This document shows positions 2,456-62,852 of a DNA stretch of 64,000 bases, in pieces. How positions within the stretch are numbered: position 1 is the first letter of the stretch; each line of letters opens with the position of its first letter. The position numbers were made by a program, and so were the translations under genes. Below the pieces are notes generated by a model, which searched no databases, was not told the origin of the DNA, and was given only the letters and a program-made list of their open reading frames with translations. This stretch comes from a virus. The stretch covers positions 47,203 through 111,202 of the IMG/VR virus record IMGVR_UViG_3300025072_002799; one strand, written 5' to 3'.

Positions 2456-4525
2456 ATGGCATCTATAGGCTTTCCACCCGAACCCGTATTCCCTAACGCA
2501 ATTGATTCAGACAGAACGTTGTTTCTTGTGTATAATAGCACAGAAAGCATTCTTGCTGTGGACAATGAGCCTTGGTGTACGGAAATTGAAATAACACCAG
2601 TATTAGAAGATGATGACGATTTTTGGGCTGATAATGGATTTGGAAACATTGACGGAGAGCTTTTCTATTACGACAGCGTAGAAAAGGACTCTAATGGAAA
2701 GGTTTCCAAGTTACTAAAATGCGCCCGTAATTTGGGTGGGATACAAACTCACTTTGTTAAATCTGGTGGTAGCAACTGCCAAGTCAGATCATTTGTTGTT
2801 GCAGAGCATCACAATCAGTTAGTAAAGGCTATTTGCCAAGTAGAGAAGTTCGTTGGATTTAATTTCGACACAGACACAGACACCCTTGACTTTAGAATCA
2901 GATGCCTAAGAGAAGTTCCAATCTGTCAAGATGACTTTAATTGCCCTGTTGTGACATTTAAGACCAGTGTTGTAGATGACGATCCTTGTGACGGAATTTT
3001 AATAGATTATGAAATAGACATAGATGGAGACTTCTCTGGCGTATTGATTAATTTTGGTGATGGAATAACCACAGATACAATTGTTGCTGGTCAGCATCGC
3101 TATCCGCCAGGAGTCTCAGTTGACCCTGTAGTGACCGTTACTAGCACAAATTGTCAGATTTGCGCTACGCCAAGTGAGAGAGAAGGTGACAATACATTAT
3201 GTGCAGTTGTTGTTCCTGAGCCGTTTACTATTCCGATACCAGAAGTGACGCTGCCAAATATAAGTTTTACAATACCTGAAATCCCAGCGCCACAAGTAGA
3301 GTTGCCTCCTGTAATTCTTCCGTGCGTAGAATTGTCCGTACCTGAGTTTCCAGAGTTTCCTGAAATTTCTATACCTGATTTTCCTGGCATAAGCATTTCT
3401 ATTCCAGATATTGACATTCAAATTCCAAGCGTAATAACCATTGTGCCTGACACGATCAGCATTGTTCCAAATGAAATAACAATCAGTCCTTCTGTAATTG
3501 AGTTTGGGAATGTCCCATTCATTCCAACTCAAATTGCATTTGTTAACAACCCAACAATTACATCTACAATTACATGGATTAACAACCCAACAATTACGTC
3601 TGTAATTTCATGGGCAGAGACACCTGTAATTCCAGACGTTTCATGGGCAACCACACCTGTAATTCCAGACGTTTCATGGGCAACCACACCTGTAATTCCA
3701 GACGTTTCATGGGCACCTACACCTACAATTCCAGACGTTGGATGGGCACCTACACCTTCAATTTCTGATGTTCAATTCGCAGATGCACCAGTAGTTTCAG
3801 TGGAGTGGGGAACGCCACCAGATTGTTCTTGTACTGTTGTCATTGAATGCCCAGCAACGAGCATTGCTGCTGGAATGAATGCAAAAAGAAACAGTGCAAG
3901 CGCTGCTTTTGACGAAGATTGGAGTAATCTCGTTGATTCTTGGGAAGACAATGATGAAGACAATTTGAAAATGCAAATGGACCTAAACAACATAGGCATA
4001 CCATCTGAAATTAAGGTCATTGCACCAGAAAGAATGCCAGATGTTAAGGTGTTTCATGATATTCCTGATGTAATTTCTGTTGAATTTCCAAAAATACCTA
4101 CTGTTATAAATGTAGAGCATGATATACCACATAAGATTGAATTGATTGACAAGCTTCCAGAATTTATAAAACTTGAGGTTCCTGGTCCGATTAAGATTGA
4201 TGCCTCTGATTTACCAGCATTAGTGTTAGAGTTGTCGGATAATTTTCCAAGTGTGTTCAAATTGGAAGCCATTGGAATACCAGACAAAATTCAAGTGGAA
4301 GGAATACCAGATACAATCGCAGTGTTGCATGATATTCCAGATGTAATTGAACTTATATTGCCTGGAGATCCAAAAGTTAGTTTGGTTATGCCAGATAATC
4401 CAAAAATAGAAATGGTGTATGAAGGTGCTCCTATAGAAATGAAAGTCAAATTAGGAGTGGACACGGCGCTAGGTGGAGATGACGATGACAATCCTTGCGT
4501 CATGATTGTTCCATGCAATAAATAA
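2456..4525 (+). CDS. Virion structural protein, PKD domain plus Pro/Ile/Val-rich repeats
   Basis: 689 aa; INFGDG..HRYPPG; N-terminal domain shared with 189..2429; IPE/IPD repeats. Confidence 0.7.
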   Translation: MASIGFPPEPVFPNAIDSDRTLFLVYNSTESILAVDNEPWCTEIEITPVLEDDDDFWADNGFGNIDGELFYYDSVEKDSNGKVSKLLKCARNLGGIQTHFVKSGGSNCQVRSFVVAEHHNQLVKAICQVEKFVGFNFDTDTDTLDFRIRCLREVPICQDDFNCPVVTFKTSVVDDDPCDGILIDYEIDIDGDFSGVLINFGDGITTDTIVAGQHRYPPGVSVDPVVTVTSTNCQICATPSEREGDNTLCAVVVPEPFTIPIPEVTLPNISFTIPEIPAPQVELPPVILPCVELSVPEFPEFPEISIPDFPGISISIPDIDIQIPSVITIVPDTISIVPNEITISPSVIEFGNVPFIPTQIAFVNNPTITSTITWINNPTITSVISWAETPVIPDVSWATTPVIPDVSWATTPVIPDVSWAPTPTIPDVGWAPTPSISDVQFADAPVVSVEWGTPPDCSCTVVIECPATSIAAGMNAKRNSASAAFDEDWSNLVDSWEDNDEDNLKMQMDLNNIGIPSEIKVIAPERMPDVKVFHDIPDVISVEFPKIPTVINVEHDIPHKIELIDKLPEFIKLEVPGPIKIDASDLPALVLELSDNFPSVFKLEAIGIPDKIQVEGIPDTIAVLHDIPDVIELILPGDPKVSLVMPDNPKIEMVYEGAPIEMKVKLGVDTALGGDDDDNPCVMIVPCNK
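3608..3772 (+). repeat. 33-bp coding tandem repeat (SWATTPVIPDV, about 5 copies)
   Basis: tcatgggcaaccacacctgtaattccagacgtt repeated with progressive divergence. Confidence 0.9.
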
Positions 4526-5385
4526 TGAGAATTAGAAAACACGAAAACAAAAACCATTACATACGAACTCCTGAAGGCGTATGGGTGAGAGACTTTACGA
4601 AAGTCGGTGTCGTTCCAAAAGACATAAACAGCTTATCTAATCTTGACGATAAGAGAATTCTTCTGAAAAATGAGTTTGAAAACATAAGAAAAAAACTCAA
4701 CATTGTAGAAGACATTAGACAAGTCTATAATAATGTAGTCATTGTTTCTGATGGAAACAAATTCAAAGAAAGACATCGCATAATTTCAGATATGCCTACA
4801 GCAGTTCCAATAGGAGTCAATGGATCTCTCAGAAAATGGGAACTAGCTGGCGATGATTGCCCAGCAGAAAAGCAACGCAACATGTTTTATGTTGTAAACA
4901 ACCCATATGATGAATGCAATAAATATCTTCCTAACGATTCATTCTATCCAAACTGTTTGGCATCTTTAAGAACTAATCCAGATTTCATAAAAGCATACAG
5001 AGGAGAAGTTTATAGATACTCAACAACGCCAGAAGTGAAGTTTCACAATCCATACAATGATGCAGAGTACACAATAGACGATTACAGAAACTCAATTTGT
5101 GCCGCCATTTGTTTTGCAAATGTGTTCAAAGTTAAAAAATTATTATTACTGTGTTGCGATGATTCATTCGAACAAGAAAGACCAGGATCTATCGAGACTG
5201 GCAAAGGAACGTGGATGTATCCACAACAAAAAGAATTGCATAACATCATTGACGCTAATCTATTTTGGCTAAAACAAAACGATGTTGAAATTGCAGAATA
5301 TTCTGACGGACCTCATTATAATAACGCTACATACATACAGTCAGATGACGAAGCTATTCAATTTTTTAAGGATGACAATGAATAA
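4525..5385 (+). CDS. Hypothetical protein, possible glycosyl/sialyltransferase-like Rossmann fold
   Basis: 286 aa; VVIVSDG, IGVNGSL and KKLLLLCCD echo the IIGxG/IxVN/IxLxGxD pattern of DUF115-like proteins. Confidence 0.4.
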   Translation: MRIRKHENKNHYIRTPEGVWVRDFTKVGVVPKDINSLSNLDDKRILLKNEFENIRKKLNIVEDIRQVYNNVVIVSDGNKFKERHRIISDMPTAVPIGVNGSLRKWELAGDDCPAEKQRNMFYVVNNPYDECNKYLPNDSFYPNCLASLRTNPDFIKAYRGEVYRYSTTPEVKFHNPYNDAEYTIDDYRNSICAAICFANVFKVKKLLLLCCDDSFEQERPGSIETGKGTWMYPQQKELHNIIDANLFWLKQNDVEIAEYSDGPHYNNATYIQSDDEAIQFFKDDNE

Positions 5386-5671
5386 TAATAACAACGAAGG
5401 ATTTTTTGACATTAATGAATTCAAGAAGTGGATGGAAGAAGATCCATCCAACAAACAAAAGAGATCTAAGTTCATTGGAATCCAAGTTGAGTCTAAAATA
5501 TCGTCAAGCAAGCTTGTAAACAAAATAGAAACCGAAAATGAAATTGATGAAGTAGTTGAAGACTTTATTGAAAACGGTGGTTTCATCACAAATGTTGAAG
5601 GCAATTGGTTTACAGTTGAAGTAAACTCTGGTGATTTTATTGTTCCAAGAAAATACGTTCGCCGTTCTTAA
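5378..5671 (+). CDS. Hypothetical protein
   Basis: Likely start MNNNNNEG overlapping the previous stop; contains EFKKWMEE. Confidence 0.6.
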   Translation: MNNNNNEGFFDINEFKKWMEEDPSNKQKRSKFIGIQVESKISSSKLVNKIETENEIDEVVEDFIENGGFITNVEGNWFTVEVNSGDFIVPRKYVRRS

Positions 5672-6030
5672 CGACCCTTTCTTATCATAGTTTTTTGATG
5701 TGGAAGCTTGTCCGTTTTAATGGATGGTGCTTCCATAATCTTTTTCAAATTCATTATAGACGCAGGCGACATAGGGATTTGCTTGTACCCTCTAGACGCA
5801 ACAGCCTTTCTAAATTCTTGGTAAGACGAAGCACTCTCTGCCCACACTTCCCACATCATTCTGTTTTTGTGAATTATTGCTTCCATCTCTGACTCTAAAT
5901 CTTGAGGAAGTCCAAGAACCTTAGGGCTTTCCATCTTTGTTGGATTCACCTTTTGAGGAGCGTTTAATATCGCTACCACCTTCACTGCCTTCTTGTCTCT
6001 CCTCGCCAGATAAACGTATATCTTTTCCAT
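5668..6030 (-). CDS. Hypothetical protein
   Basis: 120-aa ORF with GAGGA SD-like sequence upstream. Confidence 0.65.
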   Translation of the reverse strand: MEKIYVYLARRDKKAVKVVAILNAPQKVNPTKMESPKVLGLPQDLESEMEAIIHKNRMMWEVWAESASSYQEFRKAVASRGYKQIPMSPASIMNLKKIMEAPSIKTDKLPHQKTMIRKGR

Positions 6031-34689: not shown

Positions 34690-37335
34690 ATGGCTTGGTG
34701 GGATTTCTACAAATTATGGTCTTATACTAGAAGACAAGACCCGTTTTCACAAAAACTTCAAAACATAAACATTAGCGGTGCAGGCGTAACACAGCCTGAC
34801 GCTATACCAGATGTTCGTCAAGGTGGCGAATTCTGGAGTGGTTCAAAAGGAGTCATCCGTATGCGGGACTCCAATGATTTTGTTGATTTATCTACGGTTC
34901 AGAATCGCGTTTCTAGATATAAAGAATACGAACGATTAAGAGCAATGCCTGAAATAGAGACTGTAATGCAGATCTTTTCAGACGAAGCATGTGTGGCTGG
35001 CAATACTAAAATTGCCACCCTTGAGCATGGACTCAAGACAATTGCATGGCTTGAAGAACACAAAAGAGGCGAAAGATTCCCTGTTTACTGCTGGGATTTC
35101 TCAAAAGGAGATTACACAATCGGTTGGGCTTCCGAACCTCGTGTTGTAAAAGAAGCGGAGACAGTAAGAGTTAAATTTGATAATGGAGATGCAATTGTCT
35201 GTACCAAAGACCACAGATTCCTCTTAAGAGATGGAACATGGGCAGAGGCAGGCGATTTGGGCTTGGGATCTGAAACCATGCCATTCTACAGACTCAAGGC
35301 TGATACGTTCCTAACAGAAAATAAAAGAAGACAATTTCCTCGCATCTTTACATTCAAAGATGGATGGAAGCATGAGAGATGGTTTGTAAATCAGTGGAGA
35401 GATGGAGAGGTTGACCCACATACTCAAAAGTTGATGGAAATCATACAGATGATTGGTGCTGGGCTTAATACCCGTCAAATAGAAGCAAAGACAAGTCACC
35501 AATGGTGTACAATTAAAAAATGGCTAGAAAAAGAAGGCTTTAATTGGAAAGACCTACAGATCCTTTACAAAAAGAAGGACCGTCGTAGAGTTATAGATGT
35601 AGAGCCTTGGACAACTCAAAAGGTTTATGATCTCTCAGTTGAAAAGCATGAAAACTTCTGTACTGACTCTTGCGTTTTGCACAATTGCCAGAAAAATGAT
35701 GAAGGACATGTAATTGACATACACTGTTCGAATAAGAAAATAAAAGATGAACTAGAGTTCCTTTTCTACCATCGAGACATGTTGAACATCAATCGAAGGT
35801 TGTGGAGTTGGGCGAAAAATTTATTTATCTTTGGCGATTTCTTTATTGAATGCATATTGAATCCAGACAACCCTAAGGCTGGAATATTAAAGGTTCTGCC
35901 CTTACCTCCTGAAAGTGTATTCAGAATTGAAACCACAAAAGGAAAGTTGATTGAATTTCAACAAGGAAAAGAAGGTCCAGACTTCCAAGCGTTAACAAGA
36001 GCGCCTATTACGCAATCTACGGAGGCAGAACTTCAACAGTCAACAGCATTAAGATTCCATCCAGACCAAATCATCCATATGAAAATTGGCGAAGATAGAA
36101 ACGCATTTTATCCATACGGAGTGTCTTTGGTCGAATCCGCAAGGGGTCCAGCACATCAATTGAGATTGATGGAAGATGCTATGGTCGTATATCGCCTCAC
36201 GAGAGCGCCTGAAAGACGTGTATTTTACGTTGATGTCGGTCAATTGCCTCCATTTAAAGCAGAAGCTTTCATGGAACGCATGAAAGACATGTATCGTAAA
36301 AAGAAGGTTACTGGAAGAGGAAACAGAGAAGGTGGAAATGCTGTCGAAGAAAGATGGCACGCACCCGCTCAAGATGAAGATTTCTGGATTCCAATTAGAC
36401 CAAATACAAACACTCGTGTTGAAACTCTCCCAGGTGCTCAAAACTTAGGAGAAATTGACGATGCAGTTTACTTTAGAAATAAATTATTCACCGCTTTGCA
36501 ATTCCCAAAAAATTACTTAACTCAGGAAGACCCTGGACAGACAAGAATTACACTTTCTGCGCAAGATGTTAAATTTGCTCGAACTGTGGAAAGATTGCAA
36601 GATCCTATGACTGATGGACTAGTAGAAATTGCTCACAGACACTTGAGTTTGCGCGGGTTCCCAGAAGAAATGTTCGATGATTTGAAAATTAAAATGACGC
36701 CCCCATCTGATTGGCGAGAGCTAAGTAGAGCGGAAGTTATTACAAATCGTTTGAACAATGCAAGTAATCTCAAGGGATCTCAATTAATGCCTGACTATGA
36801 TATTTATATCGACTGGCTTAAGTTAGCACCTGAGGAAGCAGAAGAAAAATTGTCTCGTCTTAAGATCCAAAAACTTGAAGATCTAAAACTTCAAGTTCTG
36901 GCTTCTAATCCAGCACTATTAGGTGTTGGACAGCCTGGACAAAGCGATATGGAAGTTGGGGCTGATGGAGCAGGACCAAACCCAATGATGGGACCAGAAG
37001 GGGGAATGCCACCAGGAGGAGAAATGGGTGGGATGCCAGGAATGCCACCAGGAGGAGGAGGAATGCCACCTGGAGGACCGCCGCCTACAATGGCTATGTC
37101 TGATGGTGGACCACCTCCTGTGCCAGGAGCAGAGGGACAAGATCCTAATCAAATGCCGCCTGATCCTAATATGCAAGATCCAAACCAGCAAATGCCACAA
37201 GGACCTGGAACAATGCCAGCACAGCCAATAGCTTTGCCTGATGTCGAAAAAGAAGACATAAAGAAATATGATCTTGAAATTCAAGATTATGAGTCTGAGC
37301 AGGATGCTGAAGATGTTGATTATAGCGAAATGTAA
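34690..37335 (+). CDS. Portal protein (T4 gp20-like) with intein and Pro/Gly/Met-rich C-terminus
   Basis: QLRLMEDAMVVYRLTRAPERRVFYVDVGQLP, EDFWIP, TLPGAQNLGEIDD. Confidence 0.96.
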   Translation: MAWWDFYKLWSYTRRQDPFSQKLQNINISGAGVTQPDAIPDVRQGGEFWSGSKGVIRMRDSNDFVDLSTVQNRVSRYKEYERLRAMPEIETVMQIFSDEACVAGNTKIATLEHGLKTIAWLEEHKRGERFPVYCWDFSKGDYTIGWASEPRVVKEAETVRVKFDNGDAIVCTKDHRFLLRDGTWAEAGDLGLGSETMPFYRLKADTFLTENKRRQFPRIFTFKDGWKHERWFVNQWRDGEVDPHTQKLMEIIQMIGAGLNTRQIEAKTSHQWCTIKKWLEKEGFNWKDLQILYKKKDRRRVIDVEPWTTQKVYDLSVEKHENFCTDSCVLHNCQKNDEGHVIDIHCSNKKIKDELEFLFYHRDMLNINRRLWSWAKNLFIFGDFFIECILNPDNPKAGILKVLPLPPESVFRIETTKGKLIEFQQGKEGPDFQALTRAPITQSTEAELQQSTALRFHPDQIIHMKIGEDRNAFYPYGVSLVESARGPAHQLRLMEDAMVVYRLTRAPERRVFYVDVGQLPPFKAEAFMERMKDMYRKKKVTGRGNREGGNAVEERWHAPAQDEDFWIPIRPNTNTRVETLPGAQNLGEIDDAVYFRNKLFTALQFPKNYLTQEDPGQTRITLSAQDVKFARTVERLQDPMTDGLVEIAHRHLSLRGFPEEMFDDLKIKMTPPSDWRELSRAEVITNRLNNASNLKGSQLMPDYDIYIDWLKLAPEEAEEKLSRLKIQKLEDLKLQVLASNPALLGVGQPGQSDMEVGADGAGPNPMMGPEGGMPPGGEMGGMPGMPPGGGGMPPGGPPPTMAMSDGGPPPVPGAEGQDPNQMPPDPNMQDPNQQMPQGPGTMPAQPIALPDVEKEDIKKYDLEIQDYESEQDAEDVDYSEM
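34990..35685 (+). mobile_element. Intein (232 aa) in the portal
   Basis: Begins CVAGNTKI; block B CTKDHRFL; block F VYDLSVEKHENF; ends VLHN followed by Cys +1. Confidence 0.93.
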
Positions 37336-46883: not shown

Positions 46884-47254
46884 TCCCAATCAGGTCGCCA
46901 ATACATTGAGGAAGCAAAAGCTTTTGCAAGAGAATAATCTTGGTAACGACCCTTATTGTTTACAAATCCTGCGTTTTTGTAAAACCTTTGCAAAGCGGCC
47001 TTTTTTCGCGGCTCGGCTTCTGGTGCTAAAACTATTGGCTTTCCCACAGAAGCGGCATATTTTTTGAATCTATTCAAGACTTCAGACCCAACTCCTTTGC
47101 CTTGCACATCTGGGTATACCTTAATCGCACTAATTTCTATGCGACTGTCTGTTTCCCAAGCATATAGATCTTCAAGTTGAGGAAACTCTTTCTTGAGAGA
47201 ATCAACAAGCTGATCTAATGCCCCAGTGTTTTCAAGCCAAATTCTAAATTCCAT
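46880..47254 (-). CDS. GNAT acetyltransferase with capsid-targeting-like N-terminus
   Basis: Start MEFRIWLE; QGKGVGS acetyl-CoA motif; FYKNAGF. Confidence 0.88.
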   Translation of the reverse strand: MEFRIWLENTGALDQLVDSLKKEFPQLEDLYAWETDSRIEISAIKVYPDVQGKGVGSEVLNRFKKYAASVGKPIVLAPEAEPRKKAALQRFYKNAGFVNNKGRYQDYSLAKAFASSMYWRPDWD

Positions 47255-50498: not shown

Positions 50499-51374
50499 AT
50501 GGATTTCTCTAAATGGCTAACAATAACAGAAGCTAAGTCTGACAAGATAATCGTATATCACGGAACGGTTTACGACAATCTAAGCGGTATAATGTCTCAA
50601 GGTCTTATCCCAGCGCCACCAAAAAGAGCTTGGGGGAAAGATGATGATACAAGTTATTATTCTGCCAGCAGAAAATCATTAGAAGGTATCTACGTAACAA
50701 CAAACCTTATGACTGCTGTAAGTTCCACAAGCAATGCCGCTAATCGTGGAAAAGATGGAATAATTGTCATTGCTGAAGTGCAACCAAAGACTGGATTTGT
50801 AGACGAAGATGACATGAACATGTTCGTTTCTGCTGCCCCAAATGAATACATTGTTAAACTTATTCATGTTGCCATTCAATCAAAGTCAAAAGATCCAATA
50901 GTAGAAAAATATTTTGACAAATACAAAGACAATCTAAAACATAAATTATCTGAATTAGTCAAAGACCCTCATCCAAGTATGATGAAAAGGCTTAGTCCTC
51001 TATTCTGGCAACTTTTTGTTAAATCCATAGCTAGACAAATGGTGTATGTTGATAAACGTACTTTCAAATATGATTATCCAGGCATACGAATACCAGACAA
51101 GGCTACAGCAGAAAAAGACTTCCTTAGAATAAAAGAAGAACTTACAAAAACATTAAAAATGTTTGCAAATCCTGCAAATCTAAAGGATGAAGGATTTAAT
51201 TTTACGACCCGTATTATGGAGCCAATAAGGTTCTCTGGGGCGAATAAAATTATTGCAATTGTGTCATATCCAAGAAGCGACGATCCACCAGAAGTTCTAT
51301 ACGGAACAGTCCCAGGAAAGTTTATAAAAGACTATGAGCAAGTGATTGGTAAATGGAAACCTAAGACAGAATAG
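50499..51374 (+). CDS. Putative internal head protein with ADP-ribosyltransferase-like fold
   Basis: MDFSKWLTITE; VYHGT...IMSQGL...IYVTTN. Confidence 0.6.
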   Translation: MDFSKWLTITEAKSDKIIVYHGTVYDNLSGIMSQGLIPAPPKRAWGKDDDTSYYSASRKSLEGIYVTTNLMTAVSSTSNAANRGKDGIIVIAEVQPKTGFVDEDDMNMFVSAAPNEYIVKLIHVAIQSKSKDPIVEKYFDKYKDNLKHKLSELVKDPHPSMMKRLSPLFWQLFVKSIARQMVYVDKRTFKYDYPGIRIPDKATAEKDFLRIKEELTKTLKMFANPANLKDEGFNFTTRIMEPIRFSGANKIIAIVSYPRSDDPPEVLYGTVPGKFIKDYEQVIGKWKPKTE

Positions 51375-52953
51375 CCTCTGCTGCATTTTTCCCACACGCT
51401 CCAACTACACCGCCACCAGGACTGGTTGCCGCTCCGCATAGATACAGCCCTTTAAGGGGCGTTTTATATTTTGATCTAAATGGACCCATTTGATGTGGTA
51501 TCATTGAACCTTGGAATATGTTTCCTCCGGTCATGCCATAAGTTCTCTCTATGTCAAGAGGTGTTAAGACGTGATGGTGAAGTATTCTCTCTCTGATGTC
51601 TGGGGCGTACTCCTCTAATGTGTCAATGCAAGTATTATAAAACGCCCTCTTGACATCATCATCATCCCAACTCATTCCGTCCAAGTGATATGGAGCATAT
51701 TGAACAAACATTTGCATCACATGATGTCCTTCTGGAGCCAAAGTTGGATCTACGACAGAAGGAGTTGTTATTTCAAGAACTGGTCTTCTGCTAAACCTTC
51801 CCATTCTTGCATCATGGTATGCTTGCTCGATGTACTTCAAATCGGGGGAAATGTGTATTGTTCCATTGTAACAGCCTTCTCTAGATTCCCGTCTTTCCAT
51901 GCCAGCAAATTTAGGCAATCCTTTAATTGCCATATTGACTTTCGCACTGGCGGAAGAGTAGTCAATGTTATTGACTCGTCTTACATATGATTCAGGGAAA
52001 TTCTCTGGGTTTGCCCATCTCATTGTGGTTGTTGCATCTACACTTGAAATTATATTTTTGGCACTCAAAGTTCTTGGAATCATTCTTTCGCCAGCATCTT
52101 TGACTCCAACTCCAACTGCCCTTCCTTTCTCGACATCTATCGCTGTTACTTCATGATTAAGTAAAATATCAACGCCCAAGTCTTTGCATGTTTTTTCAAG
52201 AGCATCGGCTAATCCTCCCATTCCTCCCTCTATGTATCCCCAAATCCCTCTCTGTCCACCAGCCTCGCCCATAACATGATGAAGCAAAATGTAAGAGGAG
52301 CCTGGATTGCTAGGGGATGTAAAAGATCCAATGATTGCATCGCCAGCCAATGATGCTTTTAATACATCACTTTTAAACCAACGATTCAAAATTGTTGCAG
52401 CATCACCAGTAAGGACTTCAATTGCCTCAGGTATTTTATCGCCCAATCTGCCGAATTTACGCAGCATATTCAAAGCTTGTATGCCAGCTTTTATTTTTTT
52501 AAAAACGCCCTTAGCCATAATATCAGGTGGTGCTTGCATAGCCATTGGCTCAATCACTTCTGCAAGATTTGTAAGTTCTTCCTCATACTTAGCATATGCA
52601 TCAGCATCAGGAGCACTATAGAATGATATTTCTTTATGGTTCTGCTCCTGATCTCCACTTAAAAGAAGACCTGGACCATTAAGATCTGGGGTAAAAGAAG
52701 ATGGATTTCTAGGAAGTATTTTAAGACCATTTTCCACAAGCCTTAAATCTTCCATTATTTCAGGAAGAAAAAGACTTATTACATAGGCTGCGGGAGATAT
52801 TTTATATCCAGGCCATAATTCCTCAGTTGAAGAACAGCCTCCTAAAATATGTCTTTTTTCAAGAACGCAGACTTTTTGACCAGATTTGGCAAGATATGCC
52901 GCAGTGACCAAACCGTTATGACCACCGCCTAAAATTATTGAATCGTATTTCAT
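51361..52953 (-). CDS. FAD-dependent oxidoreductase, phytoene dehydrogenase/PYROXD2-like (COG1233)
   Basis: GGGHNGL, LEKRHILGG, EGGMG, GGNIFQG, LYLCGA..PGGGV.GACG. Confidence 0.93.
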   Translation of the reverse strand: MKYDSIILGGGHNGLVTAAYLAKSGQKVCVLEKRHILGGCSSTEELWPGYKISPAAYVISLFLPEIMEDLRLVENGLKILPRNPSSFTPDLNGPGLLLSGDQEQNHKEISFYSAPDADAYAKYEEELTNLAEVIEPMAMQAPPDIMAKGVFKKIKAGIQALNMLRKFGRLGDKIPEAIEVLTGDAATILNRWFKSDVLKASLAGDAIIGSFTSPSNPGSSYILLHHVMGEAGGQRGIWGYIEGGMGGLADALEKTCKDLGVDILLNHEVTAIDVEKGRAVGVGVKDAGERMIPRTLSAKNIISSVDATTTMRWANPENFPESYVRRVNNIDYSSASAKVNMAIKGLPKFAGMERRESREGCYNGTIHISPDLKYIEQAYHDARMGRFSRRPVLEITTPSVVDPTLAPEGHHVMQMFVQYAPYHLDGMSWDDDDVKRAFYNTCIDTLEEYAPDIRERILHHHVLTPLDIERTYGMTGGNIFQGSMIPHQMGPFRSKYKTPLKGLYLCGAATSPGGGVVGACGKNAAEAILS

Positions 52954-53508: not shown

Positions 53509-56500
53509 ATGGCTGCTGGTGACTTTCTAATTCGGCGTAACAACGCAGAGACAACGAATATACCCAATGCGGGTACGAACGTTGATGTCACTTGGGATAC
53601 CGAGGTCAAGGACAAGGGCAGCACTCTTACTTATTCTGCTGGTGAGATCACGGTTCCTGATACCGGACCTTATCTCATTATCTATAATGAAGAGTTCGCT
53701 ACTACAGAAACCACCAATAATGAACGTATCGAGATGCAAGGAGAAATCCTCATCAACGGTTCGCCAATCATGGGTGGGCGTGGTCAAGATTATATCAGAA
53801 AGGGTCAACAGGGGCATCAAGAGTGTGTTGTAAGTGGAGCATCAATTACTGAGCTTACTGCCAGTGACACAATTCAAATCAGGTTCTATAGAACCGACTC
53901 TTCGCCTGATGTTGCTGTCGATAGAGTCCCGCTTAAAGGTGGTTTGCAGGTTCTACAGTTAGACGATACCCACAACTACGGCATCTACTCTAAGACTACA
54001 TCCACTGCATTTACCACCACATTCACGGACGTTGCATGGGACAACACTATTCGACAAGATACTGGATTCACTAGGACTGGCGGAAGCATCGACATCGCCA
54101 ATGCCGGACGATACGTTGTCACCATCGGCTGCGACCTTACTAGAACAGATAACAGCACAAGAGTTTTAGCAAATACCAAGTTGCAATTGGATGCCGTTAC
54201 TGTAGCTGGAACTAGATCTTCTTGTTACATGCGTGGAAGTCAGGGTGGCGACAGTTCTAACGATGGTGCTTTGAATGGGATATGGATTATAGATGTGGCG
54301 GCAGGCGAAGATTTAACCCTTCAAATATTCCACAACAGTAACACTCCCGCAACAACCGCCACAGCTAATATGGAAATCTCCATCTGGCAACTTCCAGCAG
54401 ATAGTGAAGAGATCATAGTTGAAGCTACGACTGGTGATATGAATGCTGTCGGGACATTCACATGGGACACAAATCCAGTCATCGACACAGGATCGTTCAC
54501 ACATACCGTTGCAACCGCACCAATCGAAGTCGATGAAGACAACGATTACCTATTTGTCGCAACTACTGTCAGAGTCAACACTGTTACCGTCACTCGCGTG
54601 TCACCAGAACACGCTCTAGCCGTTGATGGCACTAGAGTGCAATACGGAATGGGCGGCGTCTTTCTTAGAGAATCTGCAACATCAAGAGGATCTATAACGG
54701 CAGCGGCGATTCTGCCTCTCACAGCAGGGCAAGAAGTTACCGTTGATGTCGCTAGGTTTTCCACCACAACTACTGCCGTTGCTAATGAGCGTGGACAGTT
54801 CGCAGCTATTAATCTTGGCAAGGCATTTCCTTCTGGGGAAGAACATCTTGGAGAAGTTGATGTGGCAGGCGTTGGAGACGTTACATCAGACGCCTCAATA
54901 GATCGCTTTGTTGATATTGGCATTGATGGAACTGGAACAGTTGATGCTTCTGCTAATGTTGATTTAGGTGGCGAAATAATACTTGATGGTGCTGGCACAG
55001 TTGATGCTACTGGAACTGTGTCAACCTCTGTTGTTGTTAATGGAGAAACAACCATTGATGGCACAGGAACAATTGATGCAGGTGCTATAACTGATCTTGT
55101 TGGGGATTCAACTCTTTGTGGCATAGGCATCATTGGAGAGGTGTGTGAGTTTGACGAATCTTTCAGTAGTGCGTTTCAAATTTGCGAACTATCTGGAGTT
55201 ACTGGAAGAGTTGATCGCGGAGGAGAGACAACGCTTGAAGGAACAGGAACACTTGATGTTAGTGCTTCTGTTGACCTTGGCGCAGACATTGACTTGGATG
55301 GAACAGGCGTATTAGATGCAACCGCTTCTATTGACCGCTTTGTTGACATTGATCTTGAAGGAACAGGAACACTTGATGTTAGTGCTTCTGTTGACCGCTT
55401 TGCAGAAATAACCCTAGACGGATCTGGGACTGTAAATGCAGATGCTTTGGTGGAACTTGCTGGGGATGTTGATCTTAATGGAGTTGCATTAGTTGATCCA
55501 ACTGCTTCTATTGATCGCTTTGTAGAAATTGACATAGACGGAACAGGAACATTAGACGTTACTGCTTCCGTTGACCTTGGTGCAGATGTTGACATTAATG
55601 GAATAGGATCTATAGGAACCACAGCCTCCATTGATCGCTTTGTTGAAATTAACATTAATGGAACTGGAACAATTGTTGCAGATGCAACAGTTGATGCTGC
55701 GGCAGAGATTCTTGGCGAAGTTGATCTTGAAGGAACAGGAACATTAGACGTTACTGCTTCAATTGATCGCTTTGTTGACATTGACATTGAAGGAACAGGA
55801 ACATTAGATTCCACGGCTTCTGTTGATCGCTTTGCAGATGCAACGCTTGAAGGAACAGGAACATTAGACGTTACTGCTTCTGCTGAATTTGGTGCTGAGA
55901 TAAACCTTGATGGGACTGGCGTATTAAACGCTGATGCTTCTGTTGATCGCTTTGCTGACATTGATCTTGATGGAATTGGAACACTAAATACAACTGCCTC
56001 TGTTGATCGCTTTGCTGACATTGATCTTGAAGGAATAGGGATATTAGATGTTGTCGCTTCTGTTGATCGTTTTGCAGACACAACACTTAATGGAACAGGC
56101 GTTATAGATGCAAATGCTTCTGTTAGGTTGTGTGCCAGCACAACTCTTTCTGGTTCAGGAGTCATTAATGCAACTGCAACTTTAGATACGGCAATCCAAA
56201 ATGGAGAAATAAACCTTCTTGGAGTCGCCAACATTGTAGCTGCTGCCACGGCTGATTTTGAGGCAGACACTACGCTAAATGGAACTGCATCAATTAATGC
56301 AAATGCCACCCTCGTAAAAGACCCAACTATCCCTCCAAGCCCTCAGTTGCCTCCACAAGGGTTCCCAGGAGATTTCGCCAATAGTCTTGGTGTTGGACCT
56401 GGAATACCGCTAGGGGTTGTGTCTGGCAATCTTAGGAAAGATATATGCCGAGATCCAAATGATGCTATAACTATCAAATTTAAGTATAAAAATAATATAT

Positions 56501-56622
56501 ATTCTCAAACGAACACTAAGAACGGCTGTATAGATATTGGTATAGAGAATATTAAAATAGCACCCAAAAAGAGATCTGAGTCGGGTATTAAAATAAGAAT
56601 TAACGAATTGCAAAAGGTTTAA
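53509..56622 (+). CDS. Large fiber/adhesin-like virion protein: three C1q/TNF-like domains plus 20-aa repeat shaft
   Basis: Three WD...I....G/D.Y modules; acidic 20-aa repeats. Confidence 0.75.
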   Translation: MAAGDFLIRRNNAETTNIPNAGTNVDVTWDTEVKDKGSTLTYSAGEITVPDTGPYLIIYNEEFATTETTNNERIEMQGEILINGSPIMGGRGQDYIRKGQQGHQECVVSGASITELTASDTIQIRFYRTDSSPDVAVDRVPLKGGLQVLQLDDTHNYGIYSKTTSTAFTTTFTDVAWDNTIRQDTGFTRTGGSIDIANAGRYVVTIGCDLTRTDNSTRVLANTKLQLDAVTVAGTRSSCYMRGSQGGDSSNDGALNGIWIIDVAAGEDLTLQIFHNSNTPATTATANMEISIWQLPADSEEIIVEATTGDMNAVGTFTWDTNPVIDTGSFTHTVATAPIEVDEDNDYLFVATTVRVNTVTVTRVSPEHALAVDGTRVQYGMGGVFLRESATSRGSITAAAILPLTAGQEVTVDVARFSTTTTAVANERGQFAAINLGKAFPSGEEHLGEVDVAGVGDVTSDASIDRFVDIGIDGTGTVDASANVDLGGEIILDGAGTVDATGTVSTSVVVNGETTIDGTGTIDAGAITDLVGDSTLCGIGIIGEVCEFDESFSSAFQICELSGVTGRVDRGGETTLEGTGTLDVSASVDLGADIDLDGTGVLDATASIDRFVDIDLEGTGTLDVSASVDRFAEITLDGSGTVNADALVELAGDVDLNGVALVDPTASIDRFVEIDIDGTGTLDVTASVDLGADVDINGIGSIGTTASIDRFVEININGTGTIVADATVDAAAEILGEVDLEGTGTLDVTASIDRFVDIDIEGTGTLDSTASVDRFADATLEGTGTLDVTASAEFGAEINLDGTGVLNADASVDRFADIDLDGIGTLNTTASVDRFADIDLEGIGILDVVASVDRFADTTLNGTGVIDANASVRLCASTTLSGSGVINATATLDTAIQNGEINLLGVANIVAAATADFEADTTLNGTASINANATLVKDPTIPPSPQLPPQGFPGDFANSLGVGPGIPLGVVSGNLRKDICRDPNDAITIKFKYKNNIYSQTNTKNGCIDIGIENIKIAPKKRSESGIKIRINELQKV
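54840..56310 (+). repeat. 60-bp (20-aa) coding repeat, about 23 diverged copies
   Basis: TASIDRFVDIDLEGTGTLDV consensus; ttgatcgctttg and ggaacaggaac recur with a 60-bp period. Confidence 0.9.
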
Positions 56623-57430: not shown

Positions 57431-57580
57431 TTAGTTTAATCCTTCATCAAGAATATTTTTTGCTGCGTTCAAGTCACGATCTAATTCATGACCATTGGCG
57501 CAAGTCCATTTTCTGTCTGAAAGTTTTAACTCTTGATTTATCCAACCACAAACATTACATGTTTTTCGGCTACCTTTCAA
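57431..57580 (-). pseudogene. tnpB: TnpB C-terminal remnant (zinc ribbon plus RuvC-III)
   Basis: Manual translation: [44 protein letters not shown]. Confidence 0.88.
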
Positions 57581-58137
57581 ACTTCAAACGAGCGGGCGGT
57601 TTGAGTTAATCCATCTTCCGATTCTACGGCAAATCTAAGTTTGCCTTTAATGGTATCATTGACAAACGTAACGTTTATCTTTTCCATTGGATCAAATGCG
57701 CCAAAAAGAGAATGAAACAACCCCTCCATTTGTAGAGGGGTTGTCCCATTGATTAGGATCTGTTGAGCAGCCATGCTCTGTTTACGGATTGCATTTACAT
57801 CACTTTCCTTGTATCTCCGATGATTTCCTTCAGTTCTCTCAGGGATAAGCTTCCCTTTTTCCTCCCAGTTGCGCACAGTTTGCTGTGATACGCCGAGAAT
57901 ATCAGCAACATCATTAATGGTTAGGTGACGGTCCTCGTTGCACTCGTCTTTAATGACTTGTTGGATATGAAGATTTTTATGCTTGGTGTCGGGGTCGTTA
58001 TATAAATTTTTACGCCCCTCTGCAAGCATATCTTTTCTGGCTTTAGCTGATGCTTCAGCCATTTCTGGGATAATGAGATCAATCTCATCTTCGATTTTTT
58101 TAGAAGGCATTCCGCCATCTCCTATTCTAATTGACAC
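57577..58137 (-). CDS. MerR-family HTH DNA-binding protein
   Basis: [38 protein letters not shown]. Confidence 0.88.
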
Positions 58138-59511: not shown

Positions 59512-60102
59512 TTAAACTAAGCTCTTTTCCCAATCTTCTGCACATTTAGCTTTCATCTCTTCATAGAAAAGTTCCTTCTCTTCTAGGCGATAATACATAA
59601 AAGGGGGAGTTTCAGGGGCGATTATTTTTAAAAAATTATGCGTTCCTTCTTTGGTAAAAACTATGCGACCAGTATCTCTTTCCTTGCGTATATCACAAGG
59701 CATGTCAACCTCATTAAAAAACCTTTTTATAACTTTGTTTCCTGCCATTCCAAAAGAAGTTGTTCTCAAACATATCCTCTTTTTAGAAACGAAAAATCCT
59801 TTATCTAAAAACCATGCTGCCAGTGCTGCGCCTGTAAGTTGGTTTAAAGAATCCATGTTCATCTCATTGTAAAAACTTTTATGCAAATCAGTCCACACAG
59901 AGTTAGATTGGGATCTCCAATACCCTTGACTAACTGGCGATGGTCGGGCGTATTCTTCAAGACATTGACATTTAAAATTAAACCAATTTTCGTCTTCGAC
60001 TGGTGCCATAGTCATAAAATAATTAACGCCCGTTTTAGGCTTTGACAAGTAGGACTTCCCTAACAGAGTCCCATAGATCAATTGTTTTTGGTATATCTTC
60101 AT
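59512..60102 (-). CDS. LAGLIDADG-fold protein with both catalytic acids lost
   Basis: LIYGTLLGKS and LAAWFLDKG versus canonical GxLLGDG and WFMDDG. Confidence 0.8.
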   Translation of the reverse strand: MKIYQKQLIYGTLLGKSYLSKPKTGVNYFMTMAPVEDENWFNFKCQCLEEYARPSPVSQGYWRSQSNSVWTDLHKSFYNEMNMDSLNQLTGAALAAWFLDKGFFVSKKRICLRTTSFGMAGNKVIKRFFNEVDMPCDIRKERDTGRIVFTKEGTHNFLKIIAPETPPFMYYRLEEKELFYEEMKAKCAEDWEKSLV

Positions 60103-60673: not shown

Positions 60674-60712
60674 AAAAAACCCCTTAAGCGATGTAGCTTC
60701 TGGGGTTTTTTT
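60674..60712. terminator. Bidirectional terminator at the trailer end of the array
   Basis: aaaaaacccc...ggggttttttt. Confidence 0.75.
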
Positions 60713-60769: not shown

Positions 60770-61173
60770 CTTGCACATACACCTCAAACATAGGTTATAT
60801 CATCTATTCCAGAACGCCCGTCTCACACGACCTTGCACATACACCTCAAACATAGGTCATATGCATCTAGAATAAAACTTTTGCATCATAACTTTTGCTT
60901 GCACATACACCTCAAACATAGGTCATATGCATCAAAAAAAAGAGACTGGTCAAGCCACTATAGCTTGCACATACACCTCAAACATAGGTCAGAAGAAGAA
61001 GTTGGCTTGCACATACACCTCAAACATAGGTCATATGCATCAGGCTGTCTGATAGCCCTTACGCCATCACTCTTGCACATACACCTCAAACATAGGTCAT
61101 ATGCATCAAAGGACACGGCGAATCAATCTACTCATTGCTTGCACATACACCTCAAACATAGGTCATATGCATC
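60770..61173 (-). CRISPR. CRISPR array, 7 repeats and 6 spacers; repeat GATGCATATGACCTATGTTTGAGGTGTATGTGCAAG
   Basis: Repeats at 60770 (degenerate, 35 bp), 60832, 60898, 60964 (truncated, 28 bp), 61006, 61072 and 61138; unique spacers of 27, 30, 30, 14, 30 and 30 bp; degenerate left end implies minus-strand transcription. Confidence 0.97.
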
Positions 61174-61234
61174 AGTTTGAATGTAAGTTCTTGTTTTCAA
61201 AGATCTTAGGTGTTTTCATAGGATTAAAAAACCT
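61174..61234 (-). promoter_or_regulatory. CRISPR leader with IHF-site-like motif
   Basis: AT-rich; minus-strand AAACAAGAACTTA (61184-61196) is one mismatch from WATCAANNNNTTR, 10 bp from the first repeat. Confidence 0.55.
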
Positions 61235-62704
61235 CTACTCGGCCCTCATCAATCTTTCCAAAGGTTCGAAAAAATCACATTTTGAGTTCAAGTCCTCAGT
61301 TGATTTCACACTATTTTTACAGACTAGCCGAGACAATTCTCTGACTTCTTTTTCACTTAACGCTGCCTGTAGGATTGTACATGATCCTGACCAAGACTCT
61401 CGTGCAAGGTCCGCGTTAAGCACATTGTTTTCAACAAAAGTCATTAAGTATGCCGAGAACAAATGTCTATCGGATTCTACGCCGCATTCACAAATGTGCC
61501 AACGTTCACTTAATTCCTTCTTCTTAATATTACCACAAAAACATGTTTGACTCAAGCTTGTTTTGAATGTATTTATTTCATTAAAATTACCACCGCTTTT
61601 TGTAACTCCATATTTTAAAATCTCAATAAATTGTGATGGTGCAAACCCATTAATGCTTCGACTAAATCTCTTGTCTTTTTGCCATTGTCCATAACTATTT
61701 GTTTCTACTCTAAAATCATTGCCCATTAACATTATGTGATTTGCTAATTTGCGATGATAGTTCTTCCTTTCGGCGGATTTCTTTCTATGAAGTTCTTTAA
61801 TTAACAACTTTGTTTCTAACATTCCTTTGGAGCGTTTTATTTTTGTTCCTTTTTTATAAGTTCCATTTTCATTAAAAGAGTCTGGGTTGTGCTGTCTGGT
61901 CTGTCTATCTAACTTTCTTTGATGCACTCTTAATTGTCTGTTCAGATTTTTAGAATCTTTTGTCATTAAAGGGAATTTCATAGCCATATTTGATGAAACT
62001 ACATCAATAAACCTTGGTCCAACATCAATTCCAACCTTCCCTTCTCCAAGTTCATGATCTGTTGGTGATTGTCCATCAATGACCAGTTGTGCATAGTATT
62101 TTGTCTTTTTAAATTCTGTTCGTCTAATCATACGAACATACCTAACATTTTGCTCTGCTCCAAACATAGTGTAACTATCATTTGGATCAGCTTCTATTTT
62201 AAGCTTTTTGAATTTAACAAAATAAAGATTGAGATCCCCCTTTTTTTCTTTTTTCCACTTTGCACAAGATCCGGTACGTCCTTCGATTGCATTGAATTGT
62301 TTATAACTGCTCATCTTTGGTCTGCCCTTCTTTCCAATAGCAAATTGATTAACAGAGGAAAAGGCAAGCCCAGTTGTAGCGGAAACAGTGTTAGCTCCAA
62401 TGTGATGATTGATCCATGATTTTGTAAATTGTGTAGACCAATTTTTAAGGCAAAACTCTGTAAATTTAAATTCTGTTCTTAATTCCTTGAAAGCTTCTTT
62501 TTTTTCTTTTCCATCTTTCATCTTACAAGCACGACTGTATCTCTTTGTTCTCCTCATTTCTTTTAGCCTTTTTAAGGCTTCCCCAACAACAGCGTTTCTG
62601 ACTTGCCTATTGGCTTCAAACGCCTTATCCAACTTCAAAGCTTGATGCGGAGTTGGTCTAAGAGCTATTTCGCAGATGTATCGTTCTTTTTTTTCTTTTG
62701 CCAT
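61235..62704 (-). CDS. CRISPR-associated TnpB-derived RuvC protein (candidate compact Cas12)
   Basis: EIALRPT N-terminus; GIDVG (D227); RVET (E334); SQTCFC...WHICEC zinc finger; DRHLFSA (H414 at the RuvC-III Asp position). Confidence 0.9.
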   Translation of the reverse strand: MAKEKKERYICEIALRPTPHQALKLDKAFEANRQVRNAVVGEALKRLKEMRRTKRYSRACKMKDGKEKKEAFKELRTEFKFTEFCLKNWSTQFTKSWINHHIGANTVSATTGLAFSSVNQFAIGKKGRPKMSSYKQFNAIEGRTGSCAKWKKEKKGDLNLYFVKFKKLKIEADPNDSYTMFGAEQNVRYVRMIRRTEFKKTKYYAQLVIDGQSPTDHELGEGKVGIDVGPRFIDVVSSNMAMKFPLMTKDSKNLNRQLRVHQRKLDRQTRQHNPDSFNENGTYKKGTKIKRSKGMLETKLLIKELHRKKSAERKNYHRKLANHIMLMGNDFRVETNSYGQWQKDKRFSRSINGFAPSQFIEILKYGVTKSGGNFNEINTFKTSLSQTCFCGNIKKKELSERWHICECGVESDRHLFSAYLMTFVENNVLNADLARESWSGSCTILQAALSEKEVRELSRLVCKNSVKSTEDLNSKCDFFEPLERLMRAE

Positions 62705-62739: not shown

Positions 62740-62758
62740 TACATATTTAAGAATTAAA

Positions 62759-62852
62759 TGACACTGGCAGGATTTGAACCTGCATGGTGAGTTTCGTCAG
62801 ACGGGTACTCTTACCACACCTTCAACTTGCGTCTACATTCCGCCACAGTGTC
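62759..62852 (-). tRNA. tRNA-like gene with Leu-type D-arm but no canonical anticodon arm
   Basis: Acceptor GACACTG/CAGTGTC plus A; D-arm GCG-GAATGTAGA-CGC; T-arm GCAGG-TTCAAAT-CCTGC; aberrant 45-nt centre. Confidence 0.75.

Follow-up and report, generated by a model that had tools for sequence, protein, structure and literature searches.

A TnpB-family gene directly followed by a CRISPR-like array in a marine huge phage

The window analysed here is a 64,000 bp stretch of viral DNA (positions 47,203 to 111,202 of the 111,202 bp IMG/VR record IMGVR_UViG_3300025072_002799; coordinates below are those of the window). It carries on its minus strand a 489-codon TnpB-family effector gene (61235–62704) and, directly downstream, a short, co-oriented CRISPR (clustered regularly interspaced short palindromic repeat)-like array (60770–61173). 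Judging from sequence comparisons, we lean to the view that this locus is an independently domesticated, immobile derivative of an insertion sequence (IS) 200/605-type TnpB that would be guided by its array, much like the V-U, TranC and Cas12r systems. The carrier is a marine huge T4-like phage. Systems of this kind have been described before; the locus adds a new lineage to them and does not constitute a new category. Its distinguishing features are an altered RuvC site, a missing RNA scaffold and the marine megaphage setting.

The TnpB-family protein and its RuvC site

An initial annotation, made from the letters of the window alone, recognized a 489 amino acid RuvC protein with TnpB hallmarks, and the product of the gene indeed has the motifs EIALRPT, GIDVGP and RWHIC and a Cys4 zinc ribbon (C388, C390, C405 and C407). 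Family membership was judged with the models NCBIfam NF040570 (guided_TnpB), Pfam PF07282 and PF01385; the first gives 98.5 bits over residues 14–414, 1.5 bits short of its cut-off of 100, PF07282 gives 30 bits against a cut-off of 26.3, and phrog_506 matches at 1.6e-45. The NCBIfam scan returned TnpB models only and no Cas12 model, and the PADLOC Cas12u2 and Cas12f models score 1e-11 to 1e-13, versus 1e-28 to 1e-45 for TnpB models. The AlphaFold2 model, built from 107 homologues (predicted local distance difference test score 91.4), has as its best Foldseek matches ISFba1 TnpB (template modelling score 0.76 on the target) and ISDra2 TnpB, after which come Cas12f, LaTranC, Cas12p, Fanzor2 and Cas12m, the Cas12m structures ranking 19th to 29th; Cas12o, CasLambda and CasPi likewise rank below TnpB, and Cas12j is not within the top 50. 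By models and by a fold of WED, REC and split RuvC with zinc ribbon the protein is a TnpB, and it lies outside every named Cas12 subtype tested.

An exhaustive HMMER search matched 2651 cluster representatives at E ≤ 1e-3, the closest of them 39% identical, and the range from 40 to 99% identity is empty. The five nearest proteins are P0016, P0028 (on a 354-kb contig), P0109, P0120 and P0132; the viral and metagenome collections searched for close relatives returned only 28–32% identity, and P0028 used as a query found no match in viral contigs. The TnpB-clade character that had been remarked on at the outset is upheld by the phylogeny, which places the protein in the QRDL(F/Y)SA family of TnpBs, nested among IS-type members, within a six-member clade (support 0.94) that is itself part of a 28-member clade (support 0.95) rich in viral contigs. 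The gene looks maintained, as the open reading frame (ORF) of 489 codons is intact with no frameshift, 51 of the 61 family-conserved residues are kept (10 deviations, against a family median of 6 and a maximum of 20) and the terminal branch is of ordinary length (0.8–0.9; median 0.73). The initial annotation had suggested that the transition from TnpB may be recent, for which there is no support: the closest relative stands at 39% identity, the G+C content of the gene (35.4%) matches that of the phage (38.7 ± 2.4%), the omegaRNA scaffold is undetectable and no IS ends are present (see below).

The most unusual feature of the protein, missed in the initial annotation, is an Asp-to-His change in RuvC-III. 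By alignment and direct reading of the codon, the RuvC-III catalytic Asp position is occupied by His414 (codon CAT, 61463–61465, minus strand), and the catalytic triad is D227 (RuvC-I), E334 (RuvC-II) and H414 (RuvC-III) in place of the D-E-D of TnpB. All 107 family members have D227 and E334, and the RuvC-III Asp is present in 106 of these, His being found in the window protein alone; as the 106 nearest relatives all have Asp, the change is here an event of its own. Its neighbour R413 is intact, and His414 aligns with the Asp of the LaTranC RD motif and with the Ala of the ISFba1 TnpB structure, in which that motif is mutated to RA. Contigs of four marine metagenome runs, each from its own study, have the identical His codon, which excludes a sequencing error.

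The same Asp-to-His change characterizes RIIIr-4, a whole virus-enriched TnpB branch whose describers argue that activity is retained (PMC10691335). The window gene resembles RIIIr-4 in this and in being virus-borne. RIIIr-4 genes often have a ribbon-helix-helix (RHH)/MazE-like partner (PMC10691335) and no such ORF adjoins the window gene; membership in RIIIr-4 was rejected because His occurs in 1 of the 107 family members and no small RHH ORF is adjacent. Cas12m, in which RuvC was lost gradually and interference is by binding only (PMC10691335), Cas12k and TldR are RuvC-impaired RNA-guided DNA binders, which the window protein would resemble if His414 abolishes cleavage, binding then blocking transcription or replication. 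In these proteins the loss extends to more of the active site or to all of the RuvC-III region, and the window protein by contrast keeps two of three catalytic residues and the arginine beside the third; TldR is moreover guided by a single omegaRNA, where the window protein is proposed to use an array. If it is an array-guided effector, cleavage that is altered but retained appears marginally the better bet, with interference or repression by binding only a prospect a little short of even.

The array and the omegaRNA of mobile relatives

As the initial annotation had it, the gene stops 61 nt before a co-oriented array of seven repeats, of which five are intact, one is truncated and one is degenerate. 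The repeat is 36 nt long with a period of 66 nt, four spacers are exactly 30 nt, and the repeats start (in plus-strand coordinates) at 60770, 60832, 60898, 60964, 61006, 61072 and 61138. Proceeding away from the gene on the minus strand, an AT-rich 61-nt interval (61174–61234), which may be a leader or the former omegaRNA scaffold region, is followed by repeat 1, an intact 36-nt hairpin (61138–61173), a 30-nt spacer (61108–61137, 43% G+C), the intact repeat 2 (61072–61107), a 30-nt spacer (61042–61071, 53% G+C) and the intact repeat 3 (61006–61041). A 24-bp deletion has then taken part of a spacer, leaving a 14-nt remnant (60992–61005), and 8 nt of the next repeat, so that repeat 4 is 5'-truncated to 28 of 36 nt (60964–60991) and cannot form its lower stem. 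Beyond it lie a 30-nt spacer (60934–60963, 37% G+C), the intact repeat 5 (60898–60933), a 30-nt spacer (60868–60897, 23% G+C), the intact repeat 6 (60832–60867), a spacer of 26–27 nt (60806–60831, 58% G+C) and the gene-distal repeat 7 (60770–60805), the degenerate copy, which has one substitution and a 1-nt deletion in its 5' arm.

The repeat forms an 11–12-bp hairpin that ends in AAG immediately before the spacer. Its predicted folding energy is -12.0 kcal/mol on the minus strand (z -3.4; 1/200 shuffles) versus -5.1 kcal/mol on the plus strand, where two G-U pairs turn into C-A mismatches, and this preference supports the co-orientation of gene and array at the RNA level. A GC-rich inverted repeat between A and T runs (60674–60711) beyond the array is likely a bidirectional terminator that closes off the unit of gene and array; the terminator consensus scan passed over it, the 61-nt interval gave no promoter consensus, and the promoter and terminator scan as a whole gave fewer sites than shuffled sequences, with one internal site (61474–61502, minus strand) that is a consensus match only. 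The repeat is found nowhere else in the 111,202-bp record, the exact repeat and its 20-nt core have zero matches in IMG/VR, and an Rfam scan of 56.5–64 kb returned no family.

Relatives of the gene occur in multiple copies in bacterial genomes, and in one Nitrospirota metagenome-assembled genome a 1.65-kb unit with hairpins at both ends is present more than 10 times. A right end of the form GAACCCCC-NGGC-TTTA-GCCN-TGGGG-AG-GTTCAG is common to 47 loci from many phyla and from viral contigs; its stem has compensatory changes and the flanks beyond it are unrelated. These relatives are mobile IS200/605-type elements with a conserved omegaRNA. Measured in the 47 loci from the last codon of the RD..SA.L (RuvC-III) motif, the median distance is 262 nt to the start of the terminal hairpin and 296 nt to the right end (range 280–426, most 286–313), where the first base of the guide stands. 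The first repeat in the window (repeat 1) lies 272–307 nt past the same motif, at the position of the family's terminal omegaRNA or right-end hairpin; the array thus begins where the omegaRNA of the relatives ends, in agreement with the initial proposal that it sits in the place of the omegaRNA. The two hairpins are also alike in architecture, with a lower stem, a bulge in the 3' arm, an upper stem and a 2–3-nt tail before the guide; the relatives' terminal hairpin ends in AG before the guide, the window repeat in AAG before the spacer.

The canonical omegaRNA itself appears to be gone from the window. A covariance model, R1, made from the last 160 nt of the family omegaRNA (162 positions), recognizes omegaRNA plus right end in 13 of 18 relatives, among them AT-rich viral ones with E values of 1e-8 to 1e-13, and finds nothing in the window (best 2.9 bits, E 1.4, filters off). 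Left-end hairpins were found in 2 relatives, and neither left-end nor right-end hairpins were found at the window gene with the model that detects them in relatives; the earlier remark that no IS end lies beside the gene was thus correct. The reported absence of tnpA, cas1 and cas2 extends to the whole 111,202-bp record, in which Y1 TnpA (PF01797), Cas1 and Cas2 have no match; as the record covers about 22% of the phage genome, this does not establish that the genome as a whole is without cas genes. The gene is present once in the record, where a mobile IS200/IS605 element would be expected in several copies, with a Y1 TnpA partner, or both. A single copy with no TnpA, no end hairpins and no omegaRNA indicates that the gene has been immobilised and has lost the canonical scaffold.

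Steps along such a route are seen elsewhere in the same family. In a mobile relative from a Deltaproteobacteria metagenome-assembled genome (L099), the terminal right-end/omegaRNA hairpin is tandemly duplicated 93 nt downstream (L099:2948–3075), possibly a first step towards an array. Downstream repeats are present in two of 137 relatives' loci, L009 and L053. L009, on a 90-kb viral contig, encodes a 37% identical protein and keeps the family omegaRNA (R1 43 bits, L009:5462–5730), which runs into two 29-nt type I-E-like repeats with a 33-nt spacer between them. L009 is the nearest array-bearing relative, but the root of the tree separates it from the window protein, so the association with an array is independent in the two; the suggestion of an independent TnpB-to-Cas12 transition in the initial annotation is borne out in this respect. 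L053 (viral contig, 2835–6003) encodes, beside a tyrosine integrase, a 499 amino acid relative that is 27% identical, belongs to the same 28-member clade and has no zinc-finger cysteines. Four degenerate 33-nt repeats are present there, the first 264 nt past the stop codon, and no canonical omegaRNA was detected in L053. The L053 repeat (GATGCAT...ATGTGCGAG) and the window repeat (GATGCAT...ATGTGCAAG) have similar ends and align with a score of 11, against a shuffle mean of -2.4 (standard deviation 2.2) and with 0 of 5000 shuffles as good, a comparison in which the repeat boundaries were picked after the match was seen; the likeness is a lead towards shared ancestry, not proof of it. The duplicate in L099, the repeats in L009 and the array in L053 together support the domestication route. 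Arrays in three further relatives, L063, L065 and L080, were considered as parallels and rejected, since these are ordinary arrays, type I or type III-like, that lie either upstream of the gene or well away from it.

Proposed mechanism and alternative explanations

If the locus is array-guided, its protein would draw its guides from a short CRISPR-like array in place of a single omegaRNA. A joint minus-strand transcript of gene and array may run as far as the inverted repeat at 60674–60711, and the 36-nt repeat, which is predicted to fold into a hairpin mirroring the relatives' terminal omegaRNA hairpin, would then be processed. The protein would bind the resulting CRISPR RNAs (crRNAs) of repeat plus spacer, with a 5' handle and a 3' guide; the crRNA might suffice alone, or be joined by an unrecognised piece from the 3' end of the gene that resembles a trans-activating CRISPR RNA (tracrRNA). 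The complex could then target complementary DNA beside a 5' motif, in competing mobile elements or in host genes. The uniform 30-nt spacers suggest earlier acquisition by a Cas1-Cas2 integrase acting in trans; the array is now static. A bolder version, which we find rather unlikely, is that a TnpB-sized effector has shed its scaffold and works with 36-nt hairpin crRNAs alone and a D-E-H site, as a programmable DNA binder or repressor or as a nuclease of altered chemistry directed against host genes or rival elements; with the L053 lineage it would then form an unnamed type V subtype from a virus-rich TnpB clade.

Several observations weigh against an array-guided effector. An otherwise invariant catalytic Asp is lost, one repeat is truncated and the terminal one is degenerate, and the array is identical in four marine datasets of 2017–2020 (in this comparison contigs break inside the array at the repeats, and length variants could escape); all of these are also compatible with decay. 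The sequence similarity between the repeat and the family right-end hairpin is not significant (1214 of 5000 shuffles are as good), so the link between them is positional and architectural only. A TnpB-sized protein with no expansion and no RNA scaffold of about 150 nt would be unusual, and neither a scan for anti-repeats over 59.5–64 kb, which found no pairing with the repeat above background, nor the fold of the 313 nt up to and including the first repeat, which is like that of shuffled sequences (z 0.32), points to another RNA partner. No relative above 39% identity was present in the collections searched for comparing the pairing of gene and array. Finally, searches of the record, of GenBank phages, of PLSDB plasmids and of IMG/VR gave no protospacer for any spacer: the best matches of the spacers in the phage's own 111 kb are 12–14 nt and at chance level, the array gave chance-level matches (E 2 to 6) to GenBank phages and PLSDB plasmids, and three spacers searched as 22-mers had no match in IMG/VR.

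Three other explanations were weighed against these data. The gene and array could be incidental neighbours, an orphan phage mini-array served by host Cas proteins with an unrelated, immobilised TnpB-like insertion alongside. Phage arrays without cas genes are known from huge phages, IS200/605 elements do land beside arrays, and TnpB relatives stand beside ordinary arrays in L063, L065 (type I-E-like 29-nt repeats) and L080; uniform 30-nt spacers and a 36-nt repeat resemble Cas1-Cas2 products, and the insignificant similarity of the repeat to the right-end hairpin fits as well. However, the L063 and L065 arrays lie upstream of the 5' end of the gene and those elements retain their own ends, whereas the first repeat in the window is co-oriented and within about 10 nt of the right-end position, and the window locus has neither the omegaRNA nor the right end that would have come with an inserted IS. 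By our own estimate, random placement on the same strand within 100 nt downstream has a probability of about 5e-4 for one array and one gene in 111 kb, and we consider this explanation unlikely. A second group of observations, the loss of the catalytic Asp in the window protein alone, the 24-bp deletion in one repeat, the degenerate terminal repeat, the lack of spacer turnover over four studies and the lack of targets, would be expected of a decaying relic, a former array- or omegaRNA-guided nuclease in which the Asp-to-His change at position 414 killed the nuclease and the array is eroding. Against decay stand the intact ORF and the ordinary branch length, together with the retention of D227, E334, R413, all four cysteines of the zinc ribbon and 51 of the 61 conserved positions; the RIIIr-4 branch conserves the same change and is considered active by its describers (PMC10691335), and working arrays normally have degenerate terminal repeats. 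Such a relic seems quite unlikely.

It is also conceivable, though highly improbable in our judgement, that the protein remains a TnpB of the omegaRNA type and that the first unit alone (scaffold, hairpin and "spacer") is in use, for instance in homing or locus maintenance in phage genomes, the other repeats being by-products of tandem duplication of the right end. The first repeat does occupy the right-end position, and just such a duplication is seen, 93 nt apart, in the mobile L099. Yet the canonical scaffold is undetectable, seven copies at a 66-nt period with unrelated 30-nt spacers (23–58% G+C, against 38.7% for the phage) are unlike flanks collected by transposition, and there is no left end, TnpA, second copy or matching target in the record.

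Phage setting and relation to known systems

The record, which CheckV estimates at about 22% of the phage genome, encodes a T4-type portal protein with an intein, a large terminase and a Gp23 capsid protein. The major capsid protein shares 78% identity with its counterpart in the nearest phage, the 595-kb uncultured phage LR756511.1; a synteny comparison found no TnpB-like gene there, and the flanking proteins are too diverged to compare. The locus is present letter for letter in contigs from marine metagenome runs of several studies, none of the public runs that hold it being an RNA run, and an identical protein is also encoded on a 389-kb contig. A LAGLIDADG homing-endonuclease-like ORF (59512–60102, minus strand; phrog_11023 at 9e-7) lies 1 kb from the array and the portal gene (34690–37335, plus strand) is interrupted by the intein; the region is rich in selfish elements. 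At 57431–58137 (minus strand) a 49 amino acid ORF (PF07282 at 3.3e-11) is what remains of a TnpB C terminus, with a zinc ribbon and the canonical RuvC-III motif DRDLNAA. The ORF overlaps the stop codon of a 186 amino acid MerR-type helix-turn-helix protein, and the helix-turn-helix of that protein has a weak match to IS607 TnpA. A decayed IS607-like element may lie here, a second TnpB trace in the phage that is unrelated to the 489-codon gene.

Directly upstream of the TnpB-like gene is a tRNA-like fold (62757–62850, minus strand) in which the acceptor stem has 7 bp, a further stem is like a D arm and the T arm (GCAGG-TTCAAAT-CCTGC) is canonical. The fold has no normal anticodon arm and was not called by ARAGORN or Rfam. 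The 12-mer TTGAAGGAACAG occurs three times at CRISPR-like spacing (55726–55856) within a 1037 amino acid ORF (53509–56622), and this recurrence of TTGAAGGAACAG is probably a protein-coding repeat. A 530 amino acid FAD-dependent amine oxidase-like protein is encoded at 51361–52953 (minus strand; PF01593 at 1e-19).

The novelty first claimed for the locus was overstated, as recruitment of TnpB without adaptation genes has already been published. About 50 independent TnpB-to-Cas12 recruitments are described, with arrays downstream and mostly without adaptation genes (PMC10691335); TranCs (Jin et al., Cell 2025, as presented in bioRxiv 10.64898/2026.03.27.714800 and 10.1101/2025.09.28.678669) are transposon-CRISPR intermediates, and the TranC clades include a phage-borne, TnpB-sized member, CauTranC9 (bioRxiv 10.64898/2026.03.27.714800). 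The window locus shares with TranC and V-U systems a TnpB-sized (300–600 amino acids) RuvC protein gene directly followed by a short co-oriented array with no adaptation genes; in those systems the repeats are 32–38 bp in 3–20 copies and each lineage derives independently from TnpB. Among PDB sequences the window protein matches LaTranC best, yet weakly and in the C-terminal half only (E 4.7e-7 with the protein, 2e-13 with the family profile), and the structural alignment has 16–18% identity. Characterised TranCs use a tracrRNA split off the omegaRNA, whereas none was found at the window locus, which in addition has the RuvC-III His.

Cas12r of the Thermus Lalka phages is likewise a phage-encoded TnpB-like gene with a short array directly after it and no adaptation genes, and its crRNA suffices alone (Trofimova et al., bioRxiv 10.64898/2026.04.20.719267). 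It works without a tracrRNA, comes from a TnpB branch previously unlinked to arrays and has a proposed role in mobile-element conflicts. It differs in its length of 564 amino acids, its 29-bp type I-E-like repeats, its need of an intact RuvC for interference and its thermophile hosts; a tblastn search of GenBank phages with the window protein found no Thermus phage, so the two are not close relatives, provided that the Lalka genomes are in that collection. The omegaRNA-using IS200/IS605-family TnpBs (ISDra2, ISFba1 and the QRDL(F/Y)SA family) belong to the same family by hidden Markov models and agree in fold, size and domain order, and the window protein has no REC or WED expansions relative to its IS relatives. 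The window gene differs from these in lacking ends, TnpA and a detectable scaffold, in its single copy, in an array that replaces the guide and in a D-E-H rather than D-E-D site.

If functional, the locus would add one more independent and compact (489 amino acids) array-guided effector to the TranC, V-U and Cas12r set, this one from a marine huge phage. It would stand out in that the long RNA scaffold has apparently been lost without growth of the protein, and in that its array-associated protein carries a natural Asp-to-His change in RuvC-III. The position of the first repeat relative to the right ends of 47 mobile relatives would make it a clear example of an array replacing the terminal hairpin and guide of an omegaRNA, a replacement that bears on how CRISPR arrays may have originated from transposon RNAs.

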